Source: Octopus vulgaris (Eukaryota). Taken from it: 64,000 nt of DNA. Shown in pieces: positions 404-50,933 of the stretch. Position 1 is the first letter of the stretch. The number at the start of each line of letters is the position of its first letter. The notes below the pieces were generated by a model, which was given only the letters and a program-made list of their open reading frames with translations, was not told the origin of the DNA and searched no databases. Position numbers and translations under genes: made by a program. Where the stretch lies: contig OX597828.1 in assembly GCA_951406725.2 (NCBI GenBank), forward strand, positions 37,510,001 to 37,574,000, written 5' to 3'.

Positions 404-1239
404 TTATTTTCTACGACTTATTTTATTTCTATACACTTTTAAGAATGTAGAAGAAAATTTATGGATACAAAAGGGAATCACGTCAGTAAATTTATTCAAA
501 ATGTGCGGTCCATAACACCTAACGATGGTAAGGGATTCCCTTATGCACAGCTTACACTTGTTAATATTTCCCTTGAAATTTGGAGTTTTAGAGATAATGG
601 ACCATTCTAGATAATAATTCTTATTATTTTTCTTCAAGTTGTGTATATGGGATGCAAGTGTTGTTGAATTATAATATTTATCGTTAGAAAATGAGCTCAT
701 ATGTGATCTATATCTAGCCTTAAAATCTACTGTGCTACCTATATAAAATTTATTTAACTTATCCTCGTCCTTGACTACACATTTATATATAACGTTAGTA
801 ACTAGACAGGAACCATCTAAAGGACATAATTCGGGGTTTCTACAATTACATTTCTTTCCGGGGCCTTTCCTAGTTTTATTTCTATTGTTACCTTTACATT
901 TTGTGTCTCCAGTTCTCGACAAGTTTCCCTCTTTCATTCCATCAAATCTTCCCTTATTACATGGGTTCGATAGATCCGGTAAAGGCAGACTGTTTGTACC
1001 ATTGGCATTAGGCGTTACAAAATTATTATACGCAGTTCCTTGGTCATCCTCAAAAGAACTTTTCCAGCTGTTCCGCCCAGCAAGCTTGCTTCTATTGATT
1101 GATGCAATACTCGAAGCAAAGTTAGGCATTACAGAGTAAGAGAACTTGATCGTTGACTTGTTGCAAATGCTATAGTATTTATGATTCTTTGGGAAGTTCT
1201 CCTTCAGAATTCTAAAAAACATTTTTGGTAAGTTCCTTA

Positions 1240-1240
<1 letters not shown>
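404..1240 (-). mobile_element. 5'-truncated Penelope-like retroelement: C-terminal coding region with Cys-rich linker and GIY-YIG endonuclease
   Basis: The stop-free translation has PLE-type motifs FPKNHKYYSICNKSTIKFSYSVMPN, CNCRNPELCPLDGSC, VIYKC...FYIGST, FKARYRSH, LASHIH, CKLCIRE and ILNK. The first ~50 aa of the 404..1384 ORF are microsatellite/flank read-through; the element breaks at the (CT)n(TA)n tract at 1241. Confidence 0.9.
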
Positions 1241-1304
<64 letters not shown>

Positions 1305-1643
1305 TTAGTGTAAGTAATTATCTGTATACGCGGATGATTCTTTGAAATGGTGTTTCTATATACGAATGATATCGTTTTATACATCAGCGTAAGAATTTTT
1401 ATGAAAAGCGTATTAAAAATACTGAAGCTTTAGAAATTGAAATATAAATTCTGGTTCTTCTTTTAAGAAAGATTATTATTTTTCTCACGCAGGTGGTGGA
1501 CGTAGATCTATATGGGAAAATTTTATCGCTCTTTCTCTTTTTTTTCTCTATCTCATTACAGTTTTTGTGTATGTGCGTGTGTCTTTGTATGTGTGTGCAT
1601 GTATGTATATGTATATGTCCGGCCTTCGCTATGATAGATGGCT

Positions 1644-3138: not shown

Positions 3139-4321
3139 ATCAGGTCATCTCATAAGTTTTGTCCGATTTTTACCTTTTTTAATTTTTATAGTATTTTAGA
3201 ATGTCTAATGGAATTAAAAATTATGTGTATGCATGTGCGTACATTTTAACTAATTAAATATCATTTTACAGAATAATAGAATTAAAATTTGATTAAAATT
3301 CTGATTAAAACCCTTTCCTACGTGGAAGTACTCAAAGAGCATTTGAGGCACATAATGCATTATGAGTAAAAAAAGGGAAGTCTGCAGCCGAAGCGACTTG
3401 AAACATACACTCTATTTATGGGAAAGAATGCTTGAATGAAAGAACTTGCAGAAGATGGCTTGCAAAATTCAGAAGTAGAAATTTCAGCATTGATGATGAA
3501 GATCGAACAGGACGTCCAGTTGAGTTTGATGATAAGCTCCTTGAGGCATTACTTGAAGAAAATCCTGCATTATCAGTGGAGGAATAGGCAAAAAAGCTTA
3601 GTTCAAACCATACCACTGTTTATCATCATCTTCATCAACTTCGAAAGGTTCCTAAACTTGGAATACTCATGAATTGTCCCAAAGCAACCGCGAATCCCGA
3701 GTTGATATCTGCCATTCTCTCGATTCTTGCGAACTCTCTTCACTCTTTTTGGATAGACTTGTGACTGGTGACGATAAATGCATCTTCTATCGAAATGTTA
3801 AACGTCGTAAACAGTGGCTTGGTAAAAGGGAAAATCTCAACCACAACCGAGAAGGGAACTTCATGGGAAAAAGGTTCTTCTCTCTATCTGGTAGGATTAC
3901 AAAGGATTAATTCACTTTGAATTGTCACCACAAAATGCAACAATCAATGCTCAAGTTTACTGTCAGCAATTAGAGCGTTTGAACCAAGGTTTGAAGAAAA
4001 AAAACCCAGCTTTAATGAATCAAAAAGGAGTGATGTTTCATCAGGACAATGCGCGACTCCACACTGCAAAGATCACATCACATAAGATCAAAGAGCTTGG
4101 TTGGGAAAAAATTCCTCATCCACCTTATTCTCCCGACTTTGCTCCTTCAAACTACCATTTGTTTCGTAGTTTACAGAATCATTTGGGGGACATAACTTTC
4201 GCAAGGCAGGAGGAGGTCGAAACTGACATTTCAGAGTTCTTCGCTTTGAAACCAAAAAAACAGAGATAATCAGGGAAAGTACATTGACGATTAAATTTCA
4301 ATTAAATATAACATTTGATCA

Positions 4322-5206: not shown

Positions 5207-6636
5207 CTCCATATATATTAATGTGAGTGCGTGCGAGAGTGACTGAGAGGGTTGGGAAAGAATGTGTGTATGAATTTCTTGTTTTGATATGCAAATATGT
5301 GACTGGCATACATACGCATTAACCGTATTGGTAGATCCTTAGATTGGCGAATATGCGGCAGCTGTGGTAATCCCACAGCATTACCGAGAAATAAGTCAAT
5401 AGATTTTGTGATAACGATGGCGATGCTGACTATAACAAAACCGATAATGGTGACGACAACTACAACGACCACGACTACGATATCGATTTCGAAATTAGGG
5501 CGCCTCTTGTACGACTTACTTCCAGACTTCCAACAAGACTGGTGTCTTACCCACTTCTTCGACAGCCCCGTGCAACCGACATACTGGGCGCCGATTTCAT
5601 GTCTCTTTCGGATCATGACGCCATTTTCTTCTCTTTCCCTTTTCAACATAACCATCTTTATTTCCCTCTCCCACCTTACTATAAACCTTTGCATAATGAA
5701 ATTCTTTTCATTATATTTCCCTCCTACTTCTACAACCACGTTCATGCTTATCTCTTAATCTGCATTCACTGTTGTTTATTTTTTGGTTTTGTCTTTTGTT
5801 TGTTTTTATTTTCGTTTGTATTTTTCCTTCGCCGCCTTTGTCTCGATTCCGAAGACTCCTTCACCTTACAATTAGATTTACAAACCTGTTAACCTTCGTA
5901 TTTCTTTCCTAACAACTTCGTCTCGTCGTCGTAATCTTTCACAATAAACGCTATTCTCCTCCTGCCTCTTCTTCTCCTCCTCCTCCTCCACCACCTCCAC
6001 CACCTCCTCCTCCTCCTCCTCTTCCTCCCCTTCCTCCTACTCCTCCTCCTCCTTCTCCTCCTCCTCTTCCTCCTCCTCATTATATTCATGATCATCTCCA
6101 CTAGAGCCACTCCCACCACCATCACCGTCATCATAATCATCATCAGTAGCGGTAGCAGTAGCGACAGCAGGAGCAGCAGCAGCAGCGAGAGAAGCAACAG
6201 TAGCAGCGGTAGCAGCATCGACACTGCCATCATCATGGCCAACATCCTCGCAGAGGTGTTAGCCTTCATTTCGTCCATGTTGAACCCTCACAAGATAACT
6301 AAAATGTTTCACATTTTAAATACCTTTCATCATTCGTTTGTAGCAAATCTCTGCACATGACCTTGCGGCAAGCAATGTGCGCGTATATATTACACACACT
6401 TTCATATACACACGCACACACACAAACACACACAGATACACACTCATACACACACATCACATACAAACATACATACACGAATCTATCATTTATCATTCGT
6501 TCGTAGCAAATCTCTACACAAGACTTTGAGGAAAGCGATATTCACGTATATCATACAGACGTTCGTTAGCTATTTCCAGTTGATTTCGGCAACTGGCTCC
6601 TCTAAGAAGAAATGGTCTCAACAATAACAGCGCGTA

Positions 6637-7342
6637 ACTGTTATGATCTCTTAGATGTTGATTAATGAGGAATTACCAACGAATTTTATGTGTGTAAGAT
6701 TCACTCCTAATATCTTAGGAGTGAAATTTAGGATTTATCGGTTTTCTGTGAATCGATTTTGATAAAAACTTTCCCGGCTGGTTTACACACTATGGCAACA
6801 CCATTGTTATGCTTTCATTATTCTATGTAACAACCTTTCTTTTTTATTTCAGGTTCTTCAGCTTTTCGGTGAACCATGCTAATAGCGTCTCTCCACTCTA
6901 AGAACAATGCGACGTGGAAAAGGCCTTAACGATGAAGAAAAGTCTGTCGTCATCAAGTGCTAAATGTACCTCTTTTCATGTCACTGCGATGTTAGGTGAT
7001 CAAGTGGACACGGTTACATGATTCCTGAAGCACCCTTCGCCGAGGAAGAACGGATCCGATTGTGAGACCTCCAAGACTGTGACAGCTAAGGATTTAAGGA
7101 ATATTGGCTGCAGGTTACGCGGGAAACCTGGCCAAAAAGGCAAAGCCATTTTCACCGACTCCGGCTTCCTCATGTACCGAAAACTACCAGAAATTGCATC
7201 CTCGGGACCATGGTTTCCGTGCGAGAACCCATGTAGCTGCCTTCTTTTACGCCCCGTCACAGGAGTTTGAGGTTTCAATGGGTCCAAAAGTACATGACGT
7301 TAGACGTGAGTGACTGAACAGGGGGTGACCCTTGACGGATGC
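6637..7342 (+). pseudogene. Decayed Tc1-like transposon, 5' portion
   Basis: MRRGKGLNDEEKSVVIK, TVTAKDLRNIGCRLRGKPGQ..AIF, TPRHRSLRFQWVQKYM and TLDG fragments. The upstream segment tgttatgatc..gatgttgattaatgaggaatta recurs at ~4878-4935. Confidence 0.75.
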
Positions 7343-7371
7343 ATGCATATCATACATACATATCAAAGGTT

Positions 7372-7900
7372 AATAACAAGAAAGATAGACAGCATGACAG
7401 GCATTGACTACTGGAGTCGACTAAAAAAACTCAATCTCTTCTCTCTCCAACGCCGCCATTAGCGCTACATTATTTGTATGATGCGGAAAATATTCCTTTA
7501 ATACTGCCTAAATGATGTCAGCATCAATTTTCAAATCTACTCAAGTCTTGGCCCCTGTGATATCCACCCACTAGAAAATCGAACTCAAGACACATAACAT
7601 TAAGACACTACTGCTTTACCTCAACCAGTCCAGCTCTCTTTAAAATTATACCTAAATATATCAAAAAGGAAACAGATCCCATAAAATTCGAAAGTTCTCT
7701 GATCAAATTTCTTAAAAGATTCCCGTAACAACGTCTTACACCCGGATATGTCTCCAACAATAATAACTCTTTGCTAGAGTAGGCCATGGTGTCGCATATA
7801 TGACTGAAGTGTGAATCGCAATCTAAAAGACTTCACCAGGTGGTGCTATTAAGTTAGACATGGCCTGGACCTATACTGGCCGAAACCTGAGTTATCTAAC
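7372..7900 (+). mobile_element. CR1/L2-group LINE 3' end remnant
   Basis: Translates DYWSRLKKLNLFSLQRR.*RYII, typical of CR1-group ORF2 C-termini; the 3' UTR ggtggtgctattaagttagacatggcctggacc is shared with 45170-45400. Confidence 0.8.
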
Positions 7901-7909
7901 TTATATATA

Positions 7910-7947
7910 TACTCTGAGTTTCTCGTTGCCGTTCATCAGACAGTTTT
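7910..7947 (-). ncRNA. Truncated family H3 hammerhead with canonical CTGATGA core
   Basis: The minus strand reads aaaactgt-CTGATGA-acg-gcaa-cga-GAAA-ctc-a-gag-TA, then (TA)n; the 3' strand of stem I is missing. Confidence 0.7.
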
Positions 7948-8258
7948 TGCTAACTTATATATATATATATTTGTGTGAACGTGTGTTCGTGCGTGTGTTC
8001 ATTTACCTCTGTTTCATCTCCCCCACTGTTTCTCATCTCTTAACTTACACATACTTAGAATAATATCATTTTAGTGACTACATTATGGGAATTTGTAATA
8101 TACGGTTTACTCGACTGATCCAAGCTCTTCCGTTCCACAATTCATCTCTACAGGTTTTCATCATTTAAACTTTACTTTCTCCTTCTCGTTCTCCACCTCC
8201 TCATCTTCCTTTTCCCTCTTTTTCTCATACTCCACCACCTTATCTTTGGTCTTCTCCT

Positions 8259-46907: not shown

Positions 46908-47560
46908 ATACAGAGTGCCTAAGATATTTGAGAACAGATTTATGTTTATAAAAATACCAGATATATAATAATAGATAATAACTTTATTTTTCAAAAAATT
47001 CTATGAGGATAAACCTTCTTTTCTATAAAGTTATTCAATTAAGCCACCTTCAGCTTTAGCAACTGCTTCTTTATGAGATCTAAATCATCTACATGCTCGA
47101 ATCAAGTGGTCCTGGTTCATTTTGGACATTACTCTGACTATGGCAGCTTTCAAAAGATCTTTGGTGTTATGGGCGTGTTCAGTGACCTCTCTCTCTCTCT
47201 CTCAACAACGCTCCATATGTAATAGACCTGAGGAATTAGTAGGCCAAATGTTAGGGGTTATCTAATCATGAAAATTTTCAGCCAACCGTTCCTGTGTTAC
47301 TAGAGCCATGTGTGATAGTGCAGAGTCTTACTGAGACACATATGACCTTCCATTGCATACACTGTCTATCCAAGGCTTAAGAACTATTTCCAGGACCTCA
47401 TTGTAGGCGGCAGAGATAACTCTAAGCCCTTGTGGAAAGAAGTAGGGAGGCATCATATACCTTCCATTACTGGCAACCCCTAAAATTATGACAGCTGTAG
47501 GAAATTTTGTACGCATAGCCCTTGGAAGGGTCTGCACATAACCATCTGTCATTTCTTCTG
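46908..47560 (-). pseudogene. Decayed Tc1/mariner-superfamily transposase (probably maT/DD37D-like), 3' half
   Basis: RTKFPTAVIILGVASNG..MPPYFFPQGLRV..YNEVLE..KPWI..YVSQ*DSA.SH..IWP fragments. Confidence 0.8.
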
Positions 47561-47713
47561 TTAACTTTTTGATCTTCCTCGAAGCTTTCCTCGTTTGAGA
47601 AAAACCAAATCAAATATTCTTCTGCTGGATTTTTCAGTTTGTCTAAGAGCCTTTTTGCTCTGATGCAGTGATTGTATGCATATATACAAATGTGTGTGTG
47701 TTTGTATGTGTGT

Positions 47714-48434: not shown

Positions 48435-48701
48435 ATTTTACTCTTTTACTCTTTTACTTGTTTTAGCCATTTGACTGCTGCCATGCTGGAGCACCGCCTT
48501 TAGTCGAGCAAATCGACCCCAGGACTTATTCTTTGTAAGCCTAGTACTTATTCTATCGGTCTCTCTTTTGCCGAACCGCTAAGTCACGGGGACGTAAACG
48601 CACCAACATCGGTTGTCAAGCGATGTTGGGGGGGACAAACAGGCACAAACATATATACACACATACATATACATATATATATACATATATACGACGGGCT
48701 T
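48435..48701 (-). mobile_element. SINE family B, 3' half
   Basis: Close match to the family B tail seen at 50750-50933 and 53045-53273. Confidence 0.85.
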
Positions 48702-48946: not shown

Positions 48947-49186
48947 ATACAGGCATACATATGTACATACATATATTAACACACACACACACAAACACAC
49001 GCACACACACACACACCTATATATGGCGATAGAGAGACAATACACGCTAACGTGAATACATGTATGTACACATAAACGTAAACACACATACGCACATGTA
49101 TACGTATATATACATGTGCATTAATACGTATATACACATTTGTCTGTATATATGTGTATGTATGGTGTTTTGTATGCGAGCGTGTA

Positions 49187-49267
<81 letters not shown>

Positions 49268-49296
49268 ATACAATATGTTACATTACTCGGTAGTCA

Positions 49297-49359
49297 AGAT
49301 AAAACTCTGAGTTTCAGATGCCGAAGTGGAAATCCACAACACCATCTCTTCGGTTATCT
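49297..49359 (-). ncRNA. Hammerhead motif, inverted copy (core CCGAAGA)
   Basis: Reverse complement of 50282-50344. Confidence 0.7.
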
Positions 49360-49707
49360 GGCTATTTGAAAACGTTATGAAAAAATACCGTTAAAAATGA
49401 AGGGAAATTACTCTGTTATAACTCTGCTTTGCCTGCGTACTTATACATCGCTCGCATTTTTCGTCATAAAAATTATATAAAAATACATAAAAATATATAA
49501 AAATATATAAAATCTTCTTGGGACATAACACAGAAAGCATGTTCTATCCGTTTTCTTTAGGGGACCAAAAACGTAACAGAAATTTAGTCACATGTAAACT
49601 CTACCGTAAACTCTATAACCACTAAAGTACGCAGGCAAAGCAGAGTTATAACAGAGTAATTTCCCTTCATTTTTAACGGTATTTTTTCATAACGTTTTCA
49701 AATAGCC

Positions 49708-49770
49708 AGATAACCGAAGAGATGGTGTTGTGGATTTCCACTTCGGCATGTGAAACTCAGAGTTTTATCT
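49708..49770 (+). ncRNA. Hammerhead motif, first direct copy
   Basis: agataa-CCGAAGA-gatg..catgt-GAAA-ctc-a-gag-TT-ttatct (one stem II substitution relative to the other two copies). Confidence 0.65.
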
Positions 49771-50281
49771 TGACTACCGAGTAATGTAACATATTGTATA
49801 GATAAATTTCCTCTATTTACATAATATTGAGGTCTCTTTCTTTCTTTTGTTATCTTACCGTTTTATCAATAAATCACCTCCCGGACGACGTTATTCTCAA
49901 CTAAGAGCTAATACGACCTTTTTGGGATTATCGCCTAACATCGGTTGAGGACTCTCACAAACAAAAGAATCTAATATGGACGCATATCACATAGATTATT
50001 CTATGAAAAAGGGTCTTTAGTGGTTATAGAGTTTACGGTAGAGGTTACATGTGACTAAATTTCTGTTACGTTTTTGGTCCCCTAAAGAAAACGGATAGAA
50101 CATGCTTTCTGTGTTATGTCCCAAGAAGATTTTATATATTTTATATATTTTTATGTATTTTTATATAATTTTTATGACGAAAAATGCGAGCGATGTATAA
50201 GTACGCAGGCAAAGCAGAGTTATAACAGAGTAATTTCCCTTCATTTTTAACGGTATTTTTTCATAACGTTTTCAAATAGCC

Positions 50282-50344
50282 AGATAACCGAAGAGATGGT
50301 GTTGTGGATTTCCACTTCGGCATCTGAAACTCAGAGTTTTATCT
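50282..50344 (+). ncRNA. Hammerhead motif, second direct copy
   Basis: agataa-CCGAAGA-gatg..catc-t-GAAA-ctc-a-gag-TT-ttatct; 6-bp perfect stem I. Confidence 0.7.
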
Positions 50345-50440
50345 TGACTACCGAGTAATGTAACATATTGTATTGATAAATTTCCTCTATTTACATAATA
50401 TTGAGGTCTCTTTCTTTCTTTTGTTATCTTACCGTTTTAT

Positions 50441-50475
<35 letters not shown>

Positions 50476-50480
50476 TATAA

Positions 50481-50648
50481 GCGCAGGCGTTACTGTGTGG
50501 TAAGAAGCTTGCTTCGCAATCACATGGTTCCGAGTTCAGCACACTGCGTAGCATCTTGGGCTAGTATCTAGCCTCGGGCCCACCAAAGCCTTGTGAGTGG
50601 ATTTGCTACACGCAAACTAAATGAAGACCATCGTGTGTATATATATAC

Positions 50649-50697
<49 letters not shown>

Positions 50698-50929
50698 TAT
50701 ATATAAATATATATATACATATATACTTATGTATGCATTTGTATGTCTGTGTTTGTCCCCCCACCATCGCCTAACAACCAATGTCGGTGTGATTACGTCC
50801 CAGTAAATTAGCGGTTCGGCAAAAGAGAACGATAGACCAAGTAGTAGGCTTACAAAAATAAGTTCTGGGGTCGATTTCTTTTTCGAACAAAGGCGGTGCT
50901 TCAGCATTACCGCAGTCAAACGAAACAAG

Positions 50930-50933
<4 letters not shown>
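50481..50933 (+). mobile_element. Full-length SINE family B with internal (TA)n
   Basis: tRNA-like head (ctgtgtggtaagaagcttgcttc..gagttcag), internal microsatellite and tail cgcagtcaaa..aacaagtaaa. Confidence 0.88.

Follow-up and report, generated by a model that had tools for sequence, protein, structure and literature searches.

The 574-nt repeat with hammerhead ribozyme (HHR)-like motifs in the window (the whole analysed stretch of 64,000 nt of Octopus vulgaris DNA) is probably a rearranged insertion confined to a single locus, which would have been generated from a young autonomous Penelope-like element (PLE) of the Hydra type when the reverse transcriptase (RT) copied a short, uncleaved RNA from two starts and jumped from its 5' to its 3' end. 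The element descends from this PLE family in pieces with defined boundaries, both its junctions are unique to the locus, and the family has two fixed end sites. The proposal of an earlier note that the element represents a retrozyme family was not upheld; we regard it as a by-product of PLE insertion, one dead-end insertion whose value lies in its derivation from a young, high-copy Hydra-clade PLE that records the mechanism of its own replication.

Structure of the window element

Positions in the parent are given as u numbers along a natural parent unit (L031:5807-8396), u1 corresponding to window positions 49766 and 50340; on this scale, u2589 and u2590 flank the predicted HHR cut, the ATG is at u211, and the stop codon ends at u2337. 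The direct repeat (49625-49871 versus 50199-50445) has a period of 574 nt and comprises 1.43 units, the copies of which differ at two sites (49750 G/50324 C; 49800 A/50374 T). The inverted arm is 99.2% identical to the reverse complement of its source (see Table 1), and its parent-derived part of 333 nt shows 100% identity with another natural copy. (TA)n repeats border the element left and right, the longest stop-free frame measures 54 aa, and the GC content is 33%. The general anatomy had been described in the earlier note (two direct HHR-like motifs at a period of 574, an inverted 5' copy carrying a third such motif, near-identical copies, no long ORF, insertion into (TA)n), which also correctly recognized the insertion signature of a PLE with HHR-type motifs. 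Its term "non-coding" applies to the present state, in which no ORF is left, and not to the origin: the first 11 codons and the last 16 codons (50048-50095) of the parent ORF are retained, and since both the start and the end codons lie inside the 574-nt unit, the latter is not non-coding in origin.

Read in order, the unit consists of parent u2450-u245, GG, 29 nt of antisense u1977-u1949, a 5-nt slip and u2286-u106; compared with the parent, 2040 nt of the ORF are missing, and the structure is sequence-equivalent to L031 with 6052-8091 deleted. With one mismatch allowed, the pattern of the left junction (50010/50011) occurred once in the assembly and that of the right junction twice, the two occurrences being the two arms of the window locus. 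Among 86 own-genome matches (40 of 381 candidates scored), the whole unit (positions 1-574) was present at the window locus only; together with the junction patterns, this speaks against an independent retrozyme family.

Table 1. Coordinates of features in and around the window element.
Feature	Position	Strand	Remark
(TA)n target repeat, left flank	49185..49262	.	
Inverted arm, copy of 50015-50378	49263..49627	-	outer end = family short end site (u39)
Inverted arm, inner end	49627	-	inside filler, 4 nt before left junction
Third HHR-like motif, family-type sequence, in inverted arm	49297..49359	-	
3-nt overlap uniting inverted and forward arms	49625..49627	.	
Parent 3'UTR/pLTR with tail and 5'UTR, plus the initial 35 nt of the ORF (u2450-u245)	49625..50010	+	ATG 49976
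HHR-like motif 1, U4C core (49715), private C>G 49750 at helix II base	49708..49770	+	predicted cut after 49764
Filler: GG, 29 nt antisense parent endonuclease-domain DNA (u1977-u1949), 5-nt slip	50011..50046	+	36 nt
Parent 3' end: last 16 codons, stop, pLTR, 67-nt tail to long end site u106	50047..50445	+	stop 50096-50098
AT-rich 10-mer repeat within parent 3' end	50130-50175	+	
HHR-like motif 2, family-type, CCGAAGA core, extra U 50325, palindromic helix III	50282..50344	+	predicted cut after 50338
(TA)n target repeat, right flank	50443..50479	.	

The parent Penelope-like element family

The other copies examined in the own-genome search of the 574-nt unit either belonged to or descended from an autonomous PLE of 2.59 kb, often in arrays, an outcome that the earlier note itself had named as pointing away from an independent retrozyme. 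The parent, with a size under 3 kb, forms tandem units of 2579-2590 nt with a single ORF of 708 aa. Its protein contains RWK (37), DKT (114), the motifs DIVDFY, YKDD and YVGLT in that order, CSCRNKELC (557; CxCX5C), CGLC (660; CxxC) and CPH (691; CxH). According to section 11 of PMC8557442, RWK, DKT, a CxCX5C linker, and CxxC and CxH in the endonuclease define the Hydra clade. A Pfam scan of the parent protein found no domain (a sub-threshold GIY-YIG match, E 0.0057, appeared in one of the four homologs scanned), and a PDB sequence search yielded no meaningful match; in a comparison by eye, the protein was co-linear with and visibly related to Hydra-1_Obim, and 1016 full-length relatives were present in the protein collection. 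Exact matches, in which the arms of one insertion are counted separately, numbered 3985 for a 17-mer of the C4 core (young subfamily), 2521 for the 23-mer just past the HHR cut and 2516 for the U4 core of the older subfamilies; a full 717-codon frame was found at 15 of 150 scored endonuclease matches. The parent family is thus young and large, with thousands of near-identical fragments, and it is classified, on motifs, size and target rather than on a tree, as a new and very active Hydra-type PLE. In the literature covered (mostly outside subscription papers, and without Repbase and Dfam), no description of the parent family or of the jump mechanism was found. An octopus repeat survey (PMC13282606) mentions PLEs with recent activity, without family detail that could be matched to the parent.

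Two further observations concern the family as a whole. The units of the L033/L034 array (G000:C1:57.21 Mb) differ at SNPs u633 and u866, and each state also occurs at other loci, so that this array does not consist of serial copies of a single circular monomer; 1-nt indels in homopolymer runs, for example at u720, are present in many of its units and are RT slips or assembly errors. Words of the family were present at 0.57-0.77 in 20 runs of 10 studies under five organism labels; the family is accordingly near-identical across several organism labels, by recent spread or shared activity.

Hammerhead-like motifs

By reading, the motifs are of type I: helix I (AGATAA/TTATCT), the core CCGAAGA and helix II (GATG/CATC) are followed by the extra U, GAAA, ACTC-A-GAGT and U17. 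Compared with CUGANGA...GAAA...UH, the core is non-canonical, with U4C and one additional base before GAAA, and an Rfam search returned no hammerhead family at either of two scales, the matches being microsatellite-driven miRNA matches only. In older sister subfamilies, a canonical CTGAAGA stands in the same frame, and the supplement table of PMC8557442 lists Hydra-clade HHRs that share the layout of the window motif; for these two reasons, the motif is considered a real HHR homologue. The hammerhead motifs of the earlier note and the positions of their predicted cuts stand, with a non-canonical core. Over 23 copies, whose rows were chosen by the core pattern, the helices paired in 91.5% of cells, and covariation was not above that of shuffles. 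A fold prediction placed the active-like HHR fold about 4 kcal/mol above the ensemble, and the circular fold of the 574-nt monomer (-115.4 versus -111.3 +/- 4.8 kcal/mol) differed from 30 base shuffles by no more than about 1 SD.

The U4C change (window 49715, 50289) is fixed in the youngest and largest subfamily, whereas the older subfamilies keep the canonical core; judged from these sequences, its fixation would be in line with a mobility that does not need cleavage. The idea that the CTGAAGA copies arose by CpG decay was rejected, as these copies form distinct older subfamilies. According to PMC3088659, U4C reduces HHR activity considerably in vitro, yet it is tolerated in vivo in a viroid. 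The C>G change at 49750 in motif 1 was missing from 50 family-type rows (some loci being counted more than once); depending on the register, it would either disrupt the initial base pair of helix II or fall into a bulge. Weak self-cleavage is predicted for the window copy, which would be a dead end.

Two end sites and probable twin priming

The arms of the family were sampled on contig C1, starting from the first 100 sites that match the 23-mer exactly, 93 of which lay within 70 analysed stretches, 96 arms being delimited by BLAST; the array at 57.2 Mb of this contig was excluded. The arms had their outer ends at either u39 or u106, beyond which came TA repeats; these adjoined nearly all of the 93 arm ends, as they do the flanks of the window element. 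Among 29 head-to-head pairs (two with an arm continuing into the next unit), all 27 measurable ones had one end at u30-42 and the other at u104-106. The longer arm was the u39 arm in 11/27 pairs and the u106 arm in another 11/27, the two agreeing within 3 nt in 5/27, and the lengths of paired arms correlated (Spearman 0.80). A u106-started arm that is out-reached by its partner cannot itself be a fold-back copy, so that both arms were probably primed on RNA; a general origin of the inverted arms by fold-back of one cDNA was rejected, because 22/27 pairs are unequal and the u39 arm is longer as often. Two internal RT starts bounding a tail, with uncleaved RNA as the main substrate, have been shown in vitro for an anole PLE (PMC11167929).

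The 5' ends of the arms (n=91) were situated in the ORF (51), in the 3'UTR (7), at u2510-2534 just upstream of the HHR (19), inside the HHR (11) and at u2586-2600 (3, one of them exactly at the HHR cut). Compared with a uniform distribution over u2510-2600, ends near the cut showed neither a pile-up nor a significant depletion (p 0.18); the missing pile-up indicates that the templates were mostly uncleaved. For two loci with a common 5' start at u2286 (L004 and L006), descent from a shared master was considered and rejected, as they have no filler in common.

Mini-tandem junctions across the family

At u246, 17 places diverged from the parent: 11 represented an SNP of the older subfamilies and six, including the window locus, were breaks at u245, all with different partners, while 171 places read through. 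The left breakpoint of the window thus recurs at five other loci, each time with a different partner. A set with less bias was formed by taking the first 100 among 146 places that read through u106: 69 could be assigned a read-through partner from their coordinates, reading through was observed in 14 others and inferred in two, and a break at u156-245 was found in 15 places (13 loci). In 6/12 non-window mini-tandem loci the break lay at u238-245; this clustering (p = 3e-5) is optimistic, as the interval was chosen after the first cases were seen. Re-entry took place at u2503-2546 in 8/13 loci, with units of 266-331 nt, and two whole same-strand HHRs were present in 4/13 (window locus, L226, L231, L235). 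An untemplated G preceded the re-entry at 7/11 junctions (p 0.008 at a background of 0.25) and was missing at 4/11; the window junction has GG. In L113, L189, L218, L240 and the window locus, the end of the other arm was no more than 4 nt away from the re-entry point, and in L227, L234 and L188 it was 3-12 nt or further away; the mini-tandem of L104 has no second arm.

None of 18 junction readings was common to two loci, and three junction patterns searched genome-wide were each found at one locus. In L226, the junction was crossed in two versions, 3 nt apart, as is expected of jumps and not of a covalent circle. L231, in turn, shows an identical junction in its two arms, with no further occurrence in the assembly, a pattern that a circle or a lost mini-tandem master could likewise explain. 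With unit lengths of 299 nt (L231, G000:C13:77665.3-77666.2 kb), 266-269 nt (L226) and 298 nt (L235), these three loci are the best candidates for a proto-retrozyme or an RNA circle. A 15-bp stem between u2502-2516 and u237-252 was predicted with pair probabilities of 0.77-1.0; according to the prediction, it encloses the HHR and both end sites, and its core is complementary also in the older subfamilies. In the window, its parts lie at 49677-49691 and 50251-50265, with 50002-50010 retained. From this modelled pairing, the stem may set the RNA ends.

Of the sequencing runs listed with words of the family, none is on record as RNA. Among 21 of 306 contig pieces from four runs, none bridges the window junctions, and at 50010 the contigs from two runs guessed to be RNA continue as the parent does, which counts as evidence neither way. 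In run X2, with a loose end at window position 49908, a contig jumps from about u143 to the HHR start, a junction of the same class.

Proposed mechanism and alternative explanations

In the favored mechanism, the endonuclease would cut the (TA)n tract, and both DNA ends would prime cDNA on one RNA, at u39 (50378) and u106 (50445). The RNA template, about 574 nt long, would begin in the filler (50011), include the HHR in uncleaved form and end near u245 (50010). The cDNA begun at u39 would halt at 50015, beside the RNA 5' end, while that begun at u106 would reach the 5' end, add GG, jump to the 3' end at u245 and copy on to 49625, crossing the HHR a second time; 49625..50010 would hence be what the RT copied once it had jumped, on its second passage. 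The two cDNAs would finally unite via the 3-nt overlap. The antisense filler may stem from a rearranged locus now missing from the assembly or from a cDNA-to-cDNA switch in the same event; the junction-pattern search located no source of a filler-bearing RNA in the assembly. The earlier note had assumed HHR-cut ends as template ends, from which the inferred ends at 50010/50011 deviate by 246 nt; the 5' ends of the family do not pile up at the cut either. An RT leaves an extra G at a capped 5' end; by analogy, the extra G might be a cap signature and the jump R2-like.

Among the alternatives, a second-generation copy is the least improbable, though still unlikely: a lost or unassembled mini-tandem master with both junctions would have been transcribed and re-inserted in trans by the parent protein, i.e. 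a proto-retrozyme moved once. The right junction in both arms implies that it was in the template or was copied between the arms, L231 carries its whole junction in both arms, and pLTRs alone can support trans insertion in a rotifer PLE (PMC3846280). However, the left junction exists once, the inverted arm ends 4 nt before it as in other fresh jump products, and the junctions across the family are private to their loci, both among the 18 readings and in the three genome-wide searches. A shade less credible is a template in the form of a 574-nt RNA circle, covalently joined at u245/filler without the HHR and copied by rolling 1.4 turns. The tendency of the other arm to stop at the junction, the untemplated G at 7/11 junctions, the two junction versions within L226 and the position of the window 5' end in the filler, far from the 15-bp stem, disagree with such a circle, even if copying did exceed one unit, the predicted stem (u2502-2516/u237-252) would join the usual 5' and 3' ends, and the L231 junction is identical in both arms.

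A full-length partial-tandem insertion that later lost 2040 nt by DNA repair with templated filler has a slightly lower probability again: the equivalence to a 6052-8091 deletion of L031, a short AAAA-GG similarity at the left junction and the microhomology deletions of PLEs described in PMC3846280 would suit it, but the inverted arm carries the right junction too, and the left breakpoint recurs at five other loci with different partners. That an independent, non-autonomous retrozyme is present, the HHR-cleaved 574-nt monomer of which circularises and is mobilised in trans, is very unlikely. Its two same-strand HHR-like motifs, its GC content of 33% without an ORF, its retention of every cis component that the parent has (the HHR and the two end sites) and its length, inside the range of 51-972 bp given for retrozyme families in 10.64898/2026.07.22.740005, are set against one locus with 1.43 units, a U4C core reported to lower activity considerably in vitro (PMC3088659), the private change at 49750 in motif 1, a circular monomer fold near that of base shuffles and an inverted arm ending at the filler, neither at random nor at the HHR cut. 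Most improbable of all is that this (TA)n-flanked repeat is an artefact of the assembly; a single assembly was examined, yet the arms differ at four positions and the same architecture recurs at 12 other loci with different junctions.

Returning to the rearranged insertion by twin priming and jumping, it is possible, though we stop short of calling it probable, that the family reveals the birth of retrozymes: an RT primed twice on a short, uncleaved, capped pLTR transcript would routinely roll from the 5' to the 3' end, about one in seven read-through copies would be a new ORF-less mini-tandem, and some (window locus, L231) would already have been copied from junction-carrying RNA. If true, the tandem and inverted structures of PLEs would result from twin priming and end-to-end jumps and not from hammerhead-made circles, and the window locus is a possible snapshot of how retrozyme-like units arise.

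Comparison with known systems

In L1 twin priming, two primers on one RNA lead to an inversion; in R2 end-to-end template jumping, the RT passes from the 5' end of its template to the 3' end of an RNA, and untemplated bases are added. The parent differs from both in that its two primers start at fixed internal sites, with the result that the arms overlap as head-to-head copies, and from R2 in that the jump returns into the same pLTR region.

The Hydra-clade PLEs (Craig et al. 2021, PMC8557442) agree with the parent in their size under 3 kb, the single ORF with RWK/DKT/CxCX5C/CxxC/CxH, the (TA)n targets, an HHR near the 3' end with a short palindromic helix III and a U cleavage site, and partial tandems with inverted 5' arms; Penelope-3_HM even has actc-a-gagt-t as in the parent HHR. 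The young subfamily deviates from their HHRs by its U4C core. Hydra-1_Obim is a different family: its protein is clearly diverged by eye, its HHR sequence differs, and the parent has far more copies and pLTR tandems, whereas the Hydra-1_Obim entry notes no pLTR. With the Poseidon element PAc of the green anole (Frangieh et al. 2024, PMC11167929), the parent shares two internal RT starts bounding the tail, the uncleaved RNA substrate and AT-rich targets cut on both strands; it differs in the genomic nature of the evidence, with one end per site in every measured two-armed insertion, in its 67-nt tail in the 5'UTR and in its frequent 5'-to-3' jumps.

Metazoan non-LTR retrozymes (Cervera and de la Pena 2020, PMC7229834; Li et al. 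2026, 10.64898/2026.07.22.740005) resemble the window element as short, low-GC (<45%), ORF-less units with a type I HHR and kinship to the PLE pLTR. In contrast, the window element is known from sequence alone, occupies a single locus with 1.43 units (not at least 2 full ones), has a non-canonical core and inferred template ends that are not HHR cuts; its RT jump would have occurred at insertion, whereas retrozymes are ascribed to later local tandem amplification. The origin of the tandems and inverted arms of PLEs, the HHR's function and the descent of retrozymes from PLEs are open in these papers: HHR-made circles (PMC4209133), self-priming (PMC3846280) and local amplification of pLTRs (10.64898/2026.07.22.740005) have been proposed, and PMC11167929 leaves the later insertion steps unvalidated. 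The genomic counts make twin priming and 5'-to-3' jumping directly testable.

Surroundings of the element

Positions 404-1429 (-) of the window contain a 3' fragment of another Hydra-like PLE family with a 341-aa frame, which includes CNCRNPELC and a GIY-YIG-like stretch and is 32% identical to parent residues 545-693. Among 180 frames of 90 aa or more in the window, mostly microsatellite, no host exon stood out. Frames at 3895-4269 (+) and 47328-47609 (-) are presumably remnants of Tc1/mariner transposases, and the short stretches flanking the element at 48600-48700, 50480-50640 and 50740-50930 we take to be common octopus SINE-type repeats.
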